A stretch of 45,219 nt of DNA from a virus (taxonomy: Duplodnaviria > Heunggongvirae > Uroviricota > Caudoviricetes), in the IMG/VR virus record IMGVR_UViG_2740892444_000003, positions 1 through 45,219 of that record. One strand, 5' to 3'. Below the pieces are notes generated by a model that did not search any database, was not told where the DNA came from, and was given only the letters and a program-made list of their open reading frames with translations. This document shows positions 3,841 to 43,158 of the stretch, piece by piece (position 1 is the stretch's first letter; each line of letters opens with the position of its first letter). Made by a program: the position numbers and the translations under genes.

Positions 3841-5317
3841 TTCAGCGTTAAAAAACGATAAATTCCAGCGAATTTTTAGAATTGTTTTGCCATTGTCCAT
3901 TTTATACATATCTTGGATTGTTTTTACTGGCAGACTTTACATTGATGACTTAGGCCGTTCTCTTTACGGTTATACATCGTGGGGACAGGACGGCAGGCCA
4001 GCCTCTGATCTATTAATGTCAGCCTTGAGTTTTGGCACGCCAATCCTAGACATTACACCCCTTCCCCAGATTTTATCTGTCATTGCCTTAAGTGCAGTTC
4101 TGTCACTTTGGGGGGTAAAGTATCTGCCAAGAAAAGGCACAACCTCTTCTGCTGTATGTGTTTTATATTTTATTCTATCACCATTTTTCCTTGAGAATAT
4201 CTCATATCGTTATGACTCACTACCTATGTCTTTGAGTCTTGTTGCACTATTATTGCCATATGCATTGAAGAAAAAACCTTGGTCTCCTTTTCTACATTTC
4301 ATTTCTGTTATCGCTTCCCTGTCTTTTTATCAGGCATCAATATCGTTATTCATATTACTTATGATTATTGATGTAATTCATCTTTATTTTTCTAAAAAAG
4401 ATGATTTAAGACATCTAGAAATAATCAAGTCAATTGCAATTAACACGCTTGCCTTTGCTGCTGGATTTGTTTTTTATAAGGTATTAATTGCTAGCTCCTT
4501 TGCGTCAGGCTCTTATTCTGATGAGCACTCAAAAATTATAAACGTTGACCACACCTTTTTTGATGTACTGTATAATAATACAGTTGTCATATTTACGTGG
4601 CTTTTAAACCCGCTTTATAAGTGCTCACCTTTTCTCTTTAAGGGGTGCGCATTGATCTTGCTAGTTAGCATCATAAAGATATCAATGACATCCAAAGATG
4701 TGAAATCCAGAGTTATTAACTTATTTTTACTTTCCGCCTTGATTACTGCGGGCTTTTTCTCTTGCTTTGCACACATTGCACTTCTTAAAACCCCTGTGCT
4801 AGCGCCTAGAGTATTAATATCTTTCACAGGATTCTTCCTGCTTTTTGCATACCTAGTAGTCCAAGCCTTTGAAAGTAAAAAAATTCAGCTGATACTTTTG
4901 GCCCCTGTTGTTTTTTTTAGTTTCATACTTTCATTTTCTTATGCAAACGCATCAAGCTCCCAAAAGGAGCTAGATAAATTAATTTCCACCTCAATTTATA
5001 ACGACATTTCTCATCAAGATTTGAGTTTTAAAAATGTTTTCATTCATGGCGTTATGCCAACATCGAAGCAGAGGGCATTGATAGTCGAGAGACTTCCGAT
5101 AATGAATTCTCTGATACCTATTTATTTAAATAACAATTGGTCTTGGGGGGCTATGATTCTTAAGCATTACCTTCTCGACTACAATGTGGACGCAACAATT
5201 ACAGATCCAAAAAAGGAAATCTGCTCCTTAACACCATTCTCCAGGTCTAAGGATTATTCACTATACAGCAAAGGTGATACCTTAATAGTATCATTTGATA
5301 AGACTGGATGCCGCTGA
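3824..5317 (+). CDS. Serotype-specific O-antigen glucosyltransferase (GtrC-type polytopic membrane protein)
   Basis: Long very AT-rich ORF encoding a multi-pass membrane protein directly after gtrB; the track ORF starts upstream inside gtrB, most plausible start is ATG 3824 (or 3833) with an AAGGG RBS. Confidence 0.7.
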
Positions 5318-36207: not shown

Positions 36208-36504
36208 TCAGAATTGCATATCAATTTGCTTAAAATCCTCGGTGGCGGCCGGGGATTTTTTCTTTGTGATTTCATCAAGCGCATACTTAAAAGCCCTGCT
36301 AATCGGACTGATGTCTGATGCCATTCCGAAAGCACACAAGACCGAAGCAATAAATCTCCAGTCCGTTCTGCTTATCTTCGATTCATGACAGCCAATCATC
36401 TTTGCCAGACCGCGCTGGGTAATAGCTGACAGATTGATAAGTAAATCTGTTTCTGCGCGATCAACGTCACGCTGTGATAGTTTGCTGTAACTTGTTCTTT
36501 CCAT
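36208..36504 (-). CDS. cII: CII-like transcriptional activator
   Basis: 98-aa ORF with HTH and C-terminal [18 protein letters not shown] resembling lambda CII (KKRPAATERSEQIQMEF). Confidence 0.7.
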
Positions 36505-36642: not shown

Positions 36643-36876
36643 TTATGCTGCTGATGCTCTACGCGATACGAACACCAGATTTTCCTTTTTCACAGGTTTA
36701 TAACCCGTGAAATTACGAGTGGCTTCTTCGATTGCATTCGCTTTATCTGGGGAAGCTCTTCGAAACCCATATGCAATCTGATCAAGATAGCCAACTGAAG
36801 TATTCGCTAATGCGGCGAGTCGCTTCCATTCCTCACTAGAAGCCTCTTTTCGCCAGCGTAGTAGTTCATTACTCAT
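36643..36876 (-). CDS. cro: Cro-like repressor (HTH)
   Basis: 77-aa ORF divergent from cI across the operator region; first gene of the rightward early operon. Confidence 0.6.
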   Translation of the reverse strand: MSNELLRWRKEASSEEWKRLAALANTSVGYLDQIAYGFRRASPDKANAIEEATRNFTGYKPVKKENLVFVSRRASAA

Positions 36877-36989: not shown

Positions 36990-37694
36990 ATGGAAAACAA
37001 AGATATTCGCAAATCGAATCTGGCGTTTTTGCTAGATGAGCATAAAAAAATCGCTGGTAACACTAATGCAAGCTTTGCCGATAAGCTTGGAGTTAGCCCT
37101 TCTCAACTCACGCAAGTCTCCGGTGAAAAAAGCACTCGAAACATAGGGGATAAACTAGCAAGAAAATTCGAAGCCGCACTTGGGTTACCTAATGGGTGGC
37201 TTGATTTGGTACATGATGTAACACCAATTGCATCATGCTCAGATTCTTTAACTTTTGTCGGTCAGGTAAGAAAAGGGTTAGTGCGCGTGGTTGGTGAGGC
37301 AATTCTTGGTGTTGATGGTGCCATCGAGATGACCGAAGAGCGCGATGGGTGGCTCAAGATTTATAGCGATGATCCAGATGCCTTTGGTCTTCGTGTGAAA
37401 GGAGACAGCATGTGGCCTAGAATAAAATCAGGAGAATATGTACTCATTGAGCCTAACACCAAAGTATTCCCGGGTGATGAGGTGTTTGTCAGAACCGTTG
37501 AAGGACACAACATGATCAAAGTTCTTGGCTATGACAGAGACGGAGAATACCAGTTTACAAGCATCAACCAGGACCATAGGCCAATAACGTTGCCTTATCA
37601 TCAAGTAGCAAAGGTGGAGTATGTGGCTGGTATTCTGAAGCAATCTCGCCATCTGGATGACATCGAGGCAAGGGAGTGGCTGAAAAGTTCGTGA
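36990..37694 (+). CDS. cI: CI-like repressor with LexA/S24 autopeptidase domain
   Basis: N-terminal HTH and C-terminal S24 domain (GDSMWPRIKSGEYVLIEP...), divergent from cro. Confidence 0.85.
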   Translation: MENKDIRKSNLAFLLDEHKKIAGNTNASFADKLGVSPSQLTQVSGEKSTRNIGDKLARKFEAALGLPNGWLDLVHDVTPIASCSDSLTFVGQVRKGLVRVVGEAILGVDGAIEMTEERDGWLKIYSDDPDAFGLRVKGDSMWPRIKSGEYVLIEPNTKVFPGDEVFVRTVEGHNMIKVLGYDRDGEYQFTSINQDHRPITLPYHQVAKVEYVAGILKQSRHLDDIEAREWLKSS

Positions 37695-37860
37695 CTTCAT
37701 CGTCACATAGCTGATAGCCAGTGGCCTGAAGAGACGTTTGGGTAATTCCAATTGTTATTTATGAACAGTCAATTCCGCCAGATTGGTGATGATGACAAGC
37801 CGCTATGGCTTAGCTTCAACATGAATACATTCATCGTAACCACAGCAGGGAGTTTAACGA

Positions 37861-38865
37861 ATGAATTCTATTGAAAATCATGATGTTTATGTGTATACAG
37901 GCGATATTCATCGTGATGGTTATCTTGATCTCACCAATGAAATCAAGAAACGTAAGTCACAACATGGATTAAAAGAAAATGTTATCTTCTGTGTTGCTAC
38001 TTATGGCGGTGATCCAAATGCAGGTTATCGTATAGGTAGAGCTCTACAGCACCATTATGAAACGGTAACACTTTTAGTTGTTGGACCATGCAAAAGTGCT
38101 GGTACACTAATAGCTATAGCAGCCAATAAACTTGTTATTGGCGACATGGGGGAGCTTGGACCATTAGATATCCAACTGAAAAAAAACGATGAAATAGGTG
38201 AAATGAGTTCTGGTTTAGCTATCATGACAGCTCTTGATGCTCTAAAGGAACGCTCTATTTCAGCGTTTAACTCACACCTTGTTAAGATAAGGTACGAAAA
38301 TCAGATCAGTACTAAAATGTCTGCTGATATCGCAACCAGACTTACAGAAGCGTTGATAGCACCTATGGCCGCACAGATAGATCCTATAAAGCTTGGTGAA
38401 CATCAGCGCGCAATGAGTATAGCTATCACTTATGGTCAACGATTAGCAGACAAACCAAGCAGCCTAAAAGAAGGGGCGTTAGGCAAACTAATAGCCTCAT
38501 ATCCTTCACATGGATTTGTTATCGACAGAAAAGAAGCCAAGGAACTTTTCAAGTGTGTTGAACATCCTGAAGGCATAACAGAAATACTCTATAATCTTTT
38601 CTGTGACAAAATTCATAGTGGTGAAATTCCAACATTTGGAAAGCCAAGAGTAATGGATTTCACTGTTTCCCAACAAGATAAAGAGGAATACACTAATGCC
38701 GAAGAATCTGCAACCGGAGATGGAAGTTCTCAACAGGATGCTGGAAAGCCAGATCCAGGAAGGTCGCGATCTGGCAAGAAAAGCGGAACAACACCTGAAC
38801 GAGATCAAGAAGGAATTGGAGCCGTATCAATTCAACCACCAGATGAACAGCAACCTAATGCGTGA
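37861..38865 (+). CDS. ClpP-fold serine peptidase (SDH/S49-like) in the rex position
   Basis: Motifs VATYGGDPNAGYRIGRAL and VVGPCKSAGTLIAIAA resemble the oxyanion/active-site Ser region of SDH/SppA/ClpP-clan peptidases; last ~55 codons are Gly/Ser/Pro-rich and overlap another ORF. Confidence 0.55.
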   Translation: MNSIENHDVYVYTGDIHRDGYLDLTNEIKKRKSQHGLKENVIFCVATYGGDPNAGYRIGRALQHHYETVTLLVVGPCKSAGTLIAIAANKLVIGDMGELGPLDIQLKKNDEIGEMSSGLAIMTALDALKERSISAFNSHLVKIRYENQISTKMSADIATRLTEALIAPMAAQIDPIKLGEHQRAMSIAITYGQRLADKPSSLKEGALGKLIASYPSHGFVIDRKEAKELFKCVEHPEGITEILYNLFCDKIHSGEIPTFGKPRVMDFTVSQQDKEEYTNAEESATGDGSSQQDAGKPDPGRSRSGKKSGTTPERDQEGIGAVSIQPPDEQQPNA

Positions 38866-38881
38866 TCTCTTTGCTCTGTAA
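38696..38881 (+). CDS. Small helical protein (61 aa) overlapping the 3' end of the peptidase gene in the +1 frame
   Basis: AAGAGGA RBS 8 nt upstream of ATG 38696; protein-like helical sequence; followed directly by a terminator. Confidence 0.4.
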   Translation: MPKNLQPEMEVLNRMLESQIQEGRDLARKAEQHLNEIKKELEPYQFNHQMNSNLMRDLFAL

Positions 38882-38895
38882 TTAATTCCTCACAT

Positions 38896-38922
38896 CCCGG
38901 CCTCAGCGCCGGGTTTTCTTTG
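38896..38922 (+). terminator. Intrinsic terminator after the cI-peptidase operon
   Basis: CCCGGC-loop-GCCGGG hairpin followed by TTTTCTTTG. Confidence 0.6.
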
Positions 38923-39089
38923 CCTCACGTTCGCCCCAAAACACATAACCAATTGTATTTATTTGAAAATTAACAGATACAACTCACTAAAACGCGCAAT
39001 TCTGATCCCCCTCAAGTCTCTTTATTCCTTCTGATAAATTCCTGCAATCAAATAAAAAACCATAATAATCAACAGGATATTTGAAAACA

Positions 39090-39140
39090 AAAACAATTTA
39101 TCATTTTGCTATTGCCATTAATTTATCATTTCGATAAAGT
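39090..39140 (+). promoter_or_regulatory. Leftward operator/promoter region (OL/PL analogue)
   Basis: 17-bp dyad ATTTATCATTTCGATAAAG (39121..39139) plus another TTTATCA at 39097, same half-site family as the cro-cI region. Confidence 0.5.
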
Positions 39141-39186
39141 TAACTCATCAGCAGGACGCTGGAAGCCAAACGGAACAGACTGGCAG

Positions 39187-39232
39187 GCTCTTTAAACAAC
39201 GTCGAACACTCGACTACGTGGCTGAAAAGCCA
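39187..39232 (+). promoter_or_regulatory. nutL-like site (boxA GCTCTTTAA and boxB hairpin TGGCT-GAAAA-AGCCA)
   Basis: Located ~100 nt upstream of the N-like gene; boxB stem-loop with GAAAA loop mirrors the nutR hairpin. Confidence 0.55.
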
Positions 39233-39330
39233 GATCACCCAACCACATAAGCTGTGGGATGCAATGCCGAAGCAACCGTCTCAGGAGGGGCTTCGAGATT
39301 GCATCGCCAAAGTTTATTCGGGAGGAATCT

Positions 39331-39603
39331 ATGTCCAGAAAAACAGAATTTAAAGGCACCTCAGCTTCTCGCCGTAGAGCTCGTCGCGCAAACCTGCAAA
39401 GTCAGGAGGCGATCAGCTCCGACAAGCTACACAGGCCAACCCCTTCACGAGTGGTCTTGCAATGCAAGCGCAAACCAGCAATGAGAGCAGAAGTGATAAC
39501 TCTGACAACGTTGACCAGAAAATATGAAGGTTCAACTTGTCTTCCGAACGTAGCCATTTACGCGGCAGGCTACAGGAAATCAAAACAACTGACAGCAAGG
39601 TGA
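39331..39603 (+). CDS. N: N-like transcription antiterminator with arginine-rich motif
   Basis: 90-aa basic protein with N-terminal ARM (TSASRRRARRANLQSQ) and GGAGGA RBS; first gene of the leftward operon after nutL. Confidence 0.6.
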   Translation: MSRKTEFKGTSASRRRARRANLQSQEAISSDKLHRPTPSRVVLQCKRKPAMRAEVITLTTLTRKYEGSTCLPNVAIYAAGYRKSKQLTAR

Positions 39604-42329: not shown

Positions 42330-42459
42330 CTGGACATGCAGCGATCCTCGACATGTGCTGTGGCAGCCGCATGTTCTGGTTAGATAAGAATGACGAACGG
42401 GCGAGATAAGCGATCGGTTAAGTGCTATAGTAATGCGCTTTTGTATTTATGGAGTGAAT

Positions 42460-43158
42460 ATGAAAAATATCATACTGGCATCATTGTTAGTGGCATCGCC
42501 GGGTGCATTTGCAGCCAGCTTTGACTGCCAAAAGGCTTCGACAGCAATCGAACATAAGATCTGCGATAACGAACGGCTGTCAAAATTAGACGAACAGCTT
42601 AGCTCTGCCTATTCTAGTGCCCTCAAAGAAAACCCAGAGAACGCAGACACCCTAAAAATGGTTCAACGTCAGTGGGTAAATATGCGTGGAAAACTCACTG
42701 ATAATAAGGCTCTGGAGCTGGCTTATCTTATCCAAATTAATGGCCTCAAAGGTTTGGGGAGTTCAGTCAGCGTAACAGCGGCCAATGAGATACCCACGTC
42801 GACGCAGAAACATTCTGAAGAGCAGGAAGAAACAAGTAAGGCAGAAGTTAAGTCGGTCAAGAACGGCAATAAGCTAACCTTAGAGTCATTCCGAGCTAAA
42901 TATGTAGAAGTAGATGGTGAGTATTACAGCACGACATCCATTCCTAGAGGCAGTTCGTTCTTGTTCACTTGCGCCAGTCGTATTGCTGATGACCAAGTGA
43001 ATGTTTGGAAGAAACATGCAGCCAAAGAGGGCAAAATCGACCTATTCTTTGAGGTTGAGAATCACTTACACACTGCTATGTTGAACGCCAATTTCCAGAA
43101 GTTGAATTCAGACCCTGCCAAAAGAGGTATTTGTAATCTGATTAACGCAGTGCCGTAA
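42460..43158 (+). CDS. Secreted DUF1311/LprI-like protein (lysozyme-inhibitor-like fold), moron
   Basis: Signal peptide MKNIILASLLVASPGAFA; mature N-terminus FDCQKASTAIEHKICDNERLSKLDEQLSSAY matches the LprI-type pattern (C-x-A-x-T...E..IC...L..LD..L...Y). Confidence 0.55.
   Translation: MKNIILASLLVASPGAFAASFDCQKASTAIEHKICDNERLSKLDEQLSSAYSSALKENPENADTLKMVQRQWVNMRGKLTDNKALELAYLIQINGLKGLGSSVSVTAANEIPTSTQKHSEEQEETSKAEVKSVKNGNKLTLESFRAKYVEVDGEYYSTTSIPRGSSFLFTCASRIADDQVNVWKKHAAKEGKIDLFFEVENHLHTAMLNANFQKLNSDPAKRGICNLINAVP

Follow-up and report, generated by a model that had tools for sequence, protein, structure and literature searches.

A predicted ClpP-fold serine peptidase gene and an unannotated gene overlapping its 3' end occupy the cI-to-N slot of a lambdoid prophage

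The sequence studied here, hereafter the window, is the whole of IMG/VR virus record IMGVR_UViG_2740892444_000003, 45,219 nucleotides (nt) of DNA from a virus of the Caudoviricetes. Between a cI-like repressor gene and the N antiterminator gene of its lambdoid immunity region lies a cassette of two genes, one for a predicted ClpP-fold serine peptidase and the other a small, unannotated open reading frame (ORF) in the +1 frame relative to the peptidase ORF. The two overlap by 170 nt (38696-38865), the stop codon of the small ORF lies 16 nt past that of the peptidase, and a further 15 nt separate the end of the small ORF from an intrinsic terminator. The cassette and its flanks comprise the following features, in window coordinates:

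36990-37694, + strand: cI-like repressor with helix-turn-helix (HTH) and S24 autopeptidase domains (Pfam Peptidase_S24, E 3.8e-16)
37695-37860, + strand: leader between cI and the peptidase gene, covered by a promoter and terminator scan
37861-38865, + strand: peptidase ORF, 334 codons, frame 0
37861-38691, + strand: folded part of the peptidase, residues 1-277, in the AlphaFold2 model
38692-38865, + strand: residues 278-334 of the peptidase and its TGA stop, a C-terminal tail modelled as disordered whose codons run in frame 0 through the small gene
38683-38688, + strand: putative Shine-Dalgarno sequence GAGGAA of the small ORF, 7 nt 5' of its ATG and encoding Glu-Glu in frame 0
38696-38881, + strand: small ORF, 61 codons, unannotated, in the +1 frame relative to the peptidase ORF
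38896-38923, + strand: predicted intrinsic terminator, a hairpin (38896-38913) with a 6-base-pair all-GC stem followed by a T-run
39331-39603, + strand: N antiterminator, the right-hand neighbour of the cassette slot

The order on the repressor strand is thus cI, cassette, terminator, N, and relatives have an equal layout. With cI and N as its flanking genes, the slot corresponds to the position of rexA-rexB in lambda, as a first-pass annotation of the window had proposed. The repressor, which RefSeq names a LexA-family regulator (WP_000428098.1), is the presumed promoter donor for the cassette. A Shine-Dalgarno sequence for the peptidase (GGGAG, 37848-37852) lies inside the leader, and the scan of the gap between cI and the peptidase gene detected neither a terminator nor a sigma-70-like site above background, so that co-transcription with the repressor is probable. 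Judging from its sequence, the terminator downstream of the small ORF would close a transcription unit made up of cI, the peptidase gene and the small ORF.

Both reading frames of the overlap are maintained by selection, and the 170 shared nucleotides are therefore truly dual-coding. The dominant selection acts on the hidden +1 frame, while the annotated one is maintained as an open frame that encodes a disordered tail. When pooled, the ratio of nonsynonymous to synonymous change (pN/pS) comes to 0.19 in the peptidase core, where pS is 0.77; the small ORF has a ratio of 0.41 with a pS of 0.67, and the tail read in frame 0 has a ratio of 1.15 with a depressed pS of 0.30. Five pairs that are phylogenetically independent give 0.13-0.30 for the small ORF and 0.89-3.11 for the frame-0 tail. 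Counted by frame-0 codon position, the minimum numbers of substitutions per site are 0.32, 0.15 and 1.38 in the core and 0.74, 0.31 and 0.37 in the overlap, where the fastest-evolving class of sites is the third codon position of the small ORF.

We assessed the openness of frame 0 by keeping the amino acids of the small protein and shuffling its synonymous codons with the codon usage of the core. Each of 12 lineages, with 22-27 opportunities for a stop codon, has frame 0 open up to its observed stop at P values from <5e-5 to 0.024. Frame 0 across the overlap is kept open by selection, while the sequence of the tail drifts. In the reverse test, openness of the +1 frame is what the composition of the tail leads one to expect (P 0.2-1.0 given the tail amino acids); it is therefore uninformative and we do not count it as evidence for the small gene. 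RNA structure was considered as a cause of the high nucleotide conservation of the overlap and rejected, given a fold z of 0.29 and substitutions that show a 3-nt periodicity. In the minimum free energy fold the Shine-Dalgarno sequence of the small ORF pairs over a long range with an ATTCCTC past the stop of that ORF, a pairing that is not kept in Pantoea or Edwardsiella.

The tail itself, whose frame-0 sequence includes the peptide DQEGIGAVSIQPPDEQQPNA, is disordered in the AlphaFold2 model, with a predicted local distance difference test (pLDDT) score below 50 over residues 278-334. Homologues in Escherichia coli, Bartonella, Neisseria, Malonomonas and Chlorobium are 320-340 amino acids long, and all have polar or acidic tails of 55-70 residues that cannot be aligned with each other. 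Two complete E. coli genomes contain the DNA of the cassette at 100% identity, and 28 of 5,426 genomes (28 complete E. coli genomes) contain it at full length with at least 91% identity. A copy with 81% identity occurs in a Klebsiella phage, and an equal architecture is found in Klebsiella, Serratia, Pantoea, Edwardsiella, Pectobacterium, Brenneria, Kluyvera and an Aeromonad. The first-pass annotation had described the last ~55 codons as out-of-frame sequence and had raised the possibilities of a degraded gene or of a sequencing frameshift error. Neither fits these data: the full-length ORF, with an open frame 0, recurs in other genera as well as in the 28 complete E. coli genomes, whose architecture is identical.

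The small ORF is intact, at 60-61 codons, in 12 Enterobacterales sequences and in one Aeromonad metagenome-assembled genome, whose peptidases are 58-100% identical, and its start and stop positions are kept in 13 lineages. A GAGGA motif lies 7-9 nt 5' of the ATG in 10 of the 12 Enterobacterales relatives, with variable flanking bases, and on this sequence evidence the small gene appears to start at its own Shine-Dalgarno sequence and ATG, independently of the peptidase start. The stop codon falls 7-28 nt past the peptidase stop in the relatives, in most of which a terminator follows it; in Klebsiella it is TGA instead of TAA, at an unchanged position. Peptides encoded in the +1 frame include NLQPEMEVLNR and ELEPYQFNHQMNSNLMR, and the conserved motif of the protein is EM..L...Q.....L...A..N...L.K.LEPYQ..NQM. 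The AlphaFold2 model consists of one long helix over residues 3-60 (pLDDT 86) and, judged by eye, its hydrophobic residues have a 3-4 spacing; the small protein is thus predicted to be one long amphipathic helix. The earlier description of a helical +1 ORF with a good ribosome-binding site, ending at a terminator, is borne out by the GAGGAA, by purifying selection, by this modelled helix and by the hairpin at 38896. The small gene is absent from the RefSeq annotation of the relatives' records produced by the Prokaryotic Genome Annotation Pipeline (PGAP), and among 5.8 billion proteins only 9 clusters contain its product; annotation misses it because it lies almost wholly inside another gene.

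A 55-amino-acid metagenomic protein (P0129) fuses the N-terminal half of the small protein to the C-terminal half of the peptidase tail. The fusion implies a 2-nt indel in an allele with a run of seven A (GCAAAAAAAGCG), at ~4070-4085 of locus L004, equivalent to window ~38770-38785, and could represent either a homopolymer error or a natural variant. Read in the frame of the small ORF, A_AAA_AAA would be a classical -1 slippery heptamer; the window allele (GCAAGAAAAGCG) does not have this run.

The peptidase is supported by modelling as a soluble, ClpP-fold serine peptidase of a distant SDH type. RefSeq already labels the gene 'SDH family Clp fold serine proteinase'. The profile PF01972 (SDH_protease) matches only residues 44-108 at 29.6 bits, under its gathering cut-off of 31.3, and NF047768 scores 36.7 bits with a cut-off of 250. 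All 73 aligned relatives match PF01972 at E <=1e-3, the best at 1e-10, and we therefore regard the protein as a distant relative and not as a curated member of the family. Other weak profile matches are to ClpP, NfeD and ClpP-like head proteases, and the sole full-length match is to phrog_21683 (E 1e-179), which has no assigned function. The peptidase family proposed by the first-pass annotation is thus recovered only weakly by profile search, with a score under the curated cut-off; S79 and K78 are invariant.

The AlphaFold2 model of the peptidase has a mean pLDDT of 79.8, mostly exceeding 90 over residues 10-100 and 190-270, and comprises a ClpP-like alpha/beta core (residues 1-105) and a helical domain (residues 118-275). 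Foldseek searches against the PDB matched ClpP, Bacillus subtilis SppA (3rst, 4kwb) and the archaeal protease 1510-N (3bpp, 6m4b), with E values of 2e-4 to 1e-3, a probability of 1.0 and template modelling (TM) scores of 0.37-0.52, in agreement with the ClpP fold that had been read from the motifs GGDPNAG (residues 49-55) and GPCKSAGT (residues 75-82), both of which are present. S79 (codon 38095-38097) aligns onto the catalytic serine of ClpP and is the predicted nucleophile. Invariant residues among the 73 sequences are K78, S79, D103, H181 and H217; the SDH type is characterised by a Ser-Asp-His order, according to its Pfam description.

The combination of this peptidase with a downstream or overlapping ORF of about 60 amino acids recurs across the whole family, which has 1,380 representatives at 50% identity (E <=1e-30). 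We scored one locus per species from many phyla (70 scorable genome loci) and 80 loci on viral contigs, in which a +1 ORF was sought 160-215 codons past a GELGPLD motif. An ATG-started +1 ORF occurs in 63 of the 70 genome loci (median 60 amino acids; median overlap 116 nt, range 11-200) and in 71 of the 80 viral loci (median 60 amino acids; median overlap 158 nt); if the first ATG is taken, overlaps in the genome loci reach up to 314 nt. A motif resembling a Shine-Dalgarno sequence precedes 45 of these 63 and 52 of these 71 ORFs. Within the genome set the ORF begins 167-213 codons past GELGPLD, i.e. at the end of the folded domain, and the +2 frame of these loci has almost nothing comparable. 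Frame 0 is open beyond chance (P <0.05) in 16 of the 63 loci, where about 3 would be expected.

Homologues that end near codon 280 with no downstream ORF had been put forward as a pattern that would speak against the pairing. We found instead that most homologues keep the tail, and that those stopping early keep the small ORF. In three tail-less peptidases (L027, L034 and L040) it lies at the peptidase stop with an overlap of 11-29 nt, and in three others (L030, L037 and L073) it is in the +2 frame or just downstream. Conservation of the small peptides within clades also runs past the peptidase stop, where composition cannot explain it, as in Acidobacteria ('RRLRE.RE.EA.EE.AR.EHVRRRL'), in beta- and gamma-proteobacteria ('QMDKA.EFARM') and in Cellvibrio and Bacteroidota relatives. 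The small proteins of ten clades have no family match in Pfam, the small protein of the window has none in NCBIfam, PHROGs or PADLOC, and a hidden Markov model (HMM) of the enterobacterial small protein reaches no farther than the Aeromonad relative.

We are highly confident that the two genes form a cargo cassette complete in itself, seated between the cI and N genes of a lambdoid prophage. One peptidase allele, WP_001084325.1, is found behind two different repressors. Conversely, E. coli TUM12357 has the cI and cro alleles of the window and the same flanks with an unrelated 126-amino-acid protein, WP_021539111.1, in the slot (L176, 2613-2993), and another E. coli prophage with another repressor has a DUF2335 gene between cI and the terminator (L177, 2897-3430); both proteins are uncharacterised candidates for the same positional class. 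The left mosaic boundary lies at ~37716-37746, with homology to E. coli UMNK88 (L006), which has a different repressor, beginning at ~37746. At the right boundary, ~38884, similarity to H-19B/Stx phages resumes 3 nt past the stop of the small ORF, which is therefore part of the mobile unit.

In Serratia, Brenneria, Kluyvera and Klebsiella the relatives follow repressor genes of the S24, Phage_CI_repr or plain HTH type, and others adjoin integrase and DinI genes or tail-fibre genes, which are other positions for morons. The gene directly upstream encodes an S24 domain in 34 of 66 viral loci, and the same is true of 12 of 79 distant genome loci. No third partner gene is conserved among these 79, the largest cluster of neighbours being the repressor (12/79). 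Defence genes near the cassette are sporadic: BstA, Mrr, PD-Lambda-1 and PDC candidates each appear once or twice among 140 neighbours.

Several observations concern sequence between the repressor and the peptidase gene. A 40-amino-acid, TTG-started ORF at 37752-37874, which overlaps the peptidase start, was considered as a third gene of the window and rejected, because in E. coli UMNK88 (L006) a TAG interrupts its frame and no family matches it. In Serratia (L087 and L088, 3732-3854) and Kluyvera (L094, 3522-3620) a YoaK-like ORF (PF28021) of 32-40 amino acids lies between repressor and cassette, and it is absent from the window. The cassette of Klebsiella phage ST13-OXA48phi12.4 adjoins a divergent XRE/ImmA pair and not an S24 repressor; an annotated 71-amino-acid ORF there (L002, 3802-4017) overlaps the peptidase start by 14 nt and is unlike the upstream sequence of the window.

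The remainder of the immunity region and other parts of the window contribute two further features and some side observations:

36208-36504, - strand: CII
36643-36876, - strand: cro-like ORF, divergent from the cI-like repressor

In every E. coli relative, PGAP places a pseudogene labelled 'frameshifted hypothetical protein' in the gap between terminator and N (window ~39134-39353); it lies over the presumed OL/PL region, and operator sequence may have been misannotated here. The left end of the window, where a tRNA-Arg(CCT) gene (1009-1083) precedes a tyrosine integrase gene (1209-2402; Phage_integrase, E 2e-39), is probably the junction between prophage and host. The integrase is at the tail-gene end of the map, away from the recombination genes. 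A 241-amino-acid ORF in the early-left operon (42433-43158) has a weak match to the LprI (lysozyme inhibitor) domain (E 1.7e-5), an unusual cargo for that operon.

What the cassette does can be approached from its position. The cI-to-N slot is a documented hotspot from which the abortive-infection genes rexAB and bstA are expressed in lysogens (PMC8585504). Having yielded these genes, this lysogen-expressed slot makes the cassette a candidate protease-based exclusion system. We suggest that cI and the cassette probably share a transcript in lysogens, in the manner of rexAB and bstA, and that the helix protein is most likely a dedicated partner of the peptidase, acting as its inhibitor, adaptor or substrate. 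The pair would most likely act in phage-phage or phage-host conflict, by means of proteolysis that is regulated and occurs on superinfection. The ratio of the two proteins may be set by the long overlap: ribosomes in the peptidase frame would cross the start of the small gene and terminate only near its end, and since they pass that start without terminating, the small protein would depend on de novo initiation. In the tail-less relatives, the short overlaps are likely to allow coupling of termination and reinitiation. The peptidase tail could serve as a pseudo-substrate, by analogy with the self-processed C-terminus of SppA.

On balance, the explanation that we slightly favour over all others taken together is that of a dual-coding cargo cassette co-transcribed with cI, with the helix protein as partner and a role in conflict. 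Taken separately, such a role, in exclusion or abortive infection, is drawn from position and is a tentative proposal. More tentative still, and somewhat doubtful, is the broader proposal that peptidase and single helix constitute a widespread two-component protease-based exclusion or abortive-infection module, kept by prophages under the promoter of the repressor, in which the helix gates or targets the peptidase and the overlap acts as a control element that fixes the ratio of the two proteins or ties synthesis of the partner to translation of the tail. A number of results weigh against these proposals. The amino-acid sequence of the tail evolves as if neutral (pN/pS ~1), and the alignment behind the single-helix model is shallow, with 9 close sequences. 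Between clades, the small proteins have no detectable homology with each other, and the statement that the same partner occurs family-wide therefore refers to position, size and character. Many distant homologues adjoin housekeeping genes, so the family may not be specific to conflict. The peptidase, the small protein and the upstream ORF match zero families of PADLOC-DB v2.0.0 at E <=1, and our search of the literature on this peptidase family, including its prophage and anti-phage context, found nothing relevant.

Two rival explanations deny that the small ORF is a separately initiated gene. A programmed +1 (or -2) frameshift, also suggested by the first-pass annotation, would join the small frame to the peptidase and replace the disordered tail with a helical C-terminus. 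The alternative frame is indeed nearly always +1 where the ORFs overlap at length, and the internal GAGGAA might stimulate a shift, as an internal sequence resembling a Shine-Dalgarno does in prfB. The conserved arrangement of GAGGA, 7-9 nt and ATG is nevertheless that of a canonical initiation site, and no slippery or hungry-codon motif is conserved. In L027, L034 and L040 the small ORF has its ATG at the peptidase stop, and the +2-frame or downstream ORFs of L030, L037 and L073, which stand alone, could not be produced by frameshifting; we consider this explanation very improbable. Even less credible is that the small ORF is an artefact of the hydrophilic tail, or that the tail arose by a frameshift error or mutation near codon 280. 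It is true that the +1 frame could be open by chance given the tail amino acids, and that the tail is disordered and has a pN/pS of ~1. Against decay or artefact stand the constancy of the architecture in the 28 complete E. coli genomes and eight other taxa, the purifying selection and codon periodicity in the small frame, the conserved ATG, Shine-Dalgarno sequence and stop position of the small ORF (including the TAA-to-TGA change at one site) and the openness of frame 0 far beyond chance.

Two other rivals accept both genes and differ in the role assigned to them; each of them seems to us unlikely, to about the same degree. The pair could be an addiction module of the toxin-antitoxin (TA) kind that stabilises the prophage or mobile element, with exclusion not its main role. 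Features that would suit such a module are the compactness of the two-gene unit, the tight linkage of its expression, the lack of a conserved third gene, the fast evolution of the small partner and a genomic context that varies greatly, with transposases and TA genes among the neighbours. On the other hand, neither protein resembles known TA families, the small protein has no DNA-binding domain, and the tie to the 3' side of a repressor (34/66 viral loci) is typical of defence cargo expressed in lysogens, e.g. rexAB and bstA; TA and abortive-infection roles are in any case not mutually exclusive. Alternatively, the peptidase could belong to the phage's own biology, either processing the S24 repressor or an antirepressor and so tuning induction, or being a displaced head-maturation protease with a scaffold-like partner. 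The recurrent proximity of the family to S24 or XRE/ImmA repressor modules, the weak matches to ClpP-related head-maturation proteases (NF045542, E 2e-8; phrog_1684, 53, 94 and 2976) and the precedent of the nested protease and scaffold genes C and Nu3 in lambda are consistent with this. However, the NF045542 match reaches only 34.4 bits with a cut-off of 120, the gene is in the immunity region while the head and packaging ORFs are at ~19-26 kb of the window, and many homologues have no phage genes nearby. Identical cI and cro genes occur with unrelated cargo, and the same peptidase occurs behind different repressors, and the peptidase is therefore not part of the switch.

The annotation of the peptidase and the status of the cI-to-N slot as a hotspot were already known. 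We did not find descriptions in the literature of the small overlapping gene or of its conservation across the family, nor of the dual-coding pattern of selection or the strong linkage to repressors. The small gene is a conserved protein-coding gene that is absent from standard annotation, in an arrangement that extends over ~1,400 clusters from many phyla and prophages. As a clean example of dual coding it should be useful for gene-finding methods and for the study of how overlaps evolve, and even without a phenotype it corrects the annotation of a recurrent prophage gene.

Compared with known systems, the peptidase has in common with SDH peptidases, ClpP, SppA and 1510-N an alpha/beta core like that of ClpP and crotonase. 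The predicted nucleophilic serine, which aligns with that of ClpP, is in a G-x-x-K-S-A-G turn, and invariant candidate Asp and His residues follow it in the order Ser-Asp-His. It differs from its SDH and ClpP relatives in its large helical domain and disordered tail, and from SppA and NfeD in having no membrane segments. B. subtilis SppA carries a C-terminal segment in its own active site, where it is self-processed (title of PDB 4kwb), and an analogy with the tail is possible. For the SDH, ClpP, SppA and 1510-N families we found no description of an overlapping small gene such as that of the peptidase family studied here.

The likeness to lambda rexAB and BTP1 bstA is one of slot (cI, cargo, terminator, PL/N), strand, varied repressors and exchangeable cargo; in contrast to RexA, RexB and BstA, to which neither protein of the pair has sequence or fold similarity, the chemistry would be that of a serine peptidase. 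Lit, a zinc metalloprotease of the e14 prophage, is the product of a single gene and blocks T4 by cleaving EF-Tu when activated by a phage peptide. It may serve as a precedent for a prophage protease that acts as an exclusion effector and is inactive until infection, although the peptidase of the window is unrelated to it in fold and gene organisation. A likeness in gene arrangement exists with the lambda pair C/Nu3, a protease and a scaffold protein nested in frame; overprinted phage genes that are out of frame are also known. In C/Nu3 as in the cassette, the 3' part of the gene for a ClpP-like protease also encodes a second protein, and both products are conserved. In the window, unlike in C/Nu3, the second frame is +1 and the overlap covers nearly the whole small gene, and the arrangement, unlike C/Nu3 or the overprinted genes, persists across bacterial phyla and is not restricted to one phage lineage.

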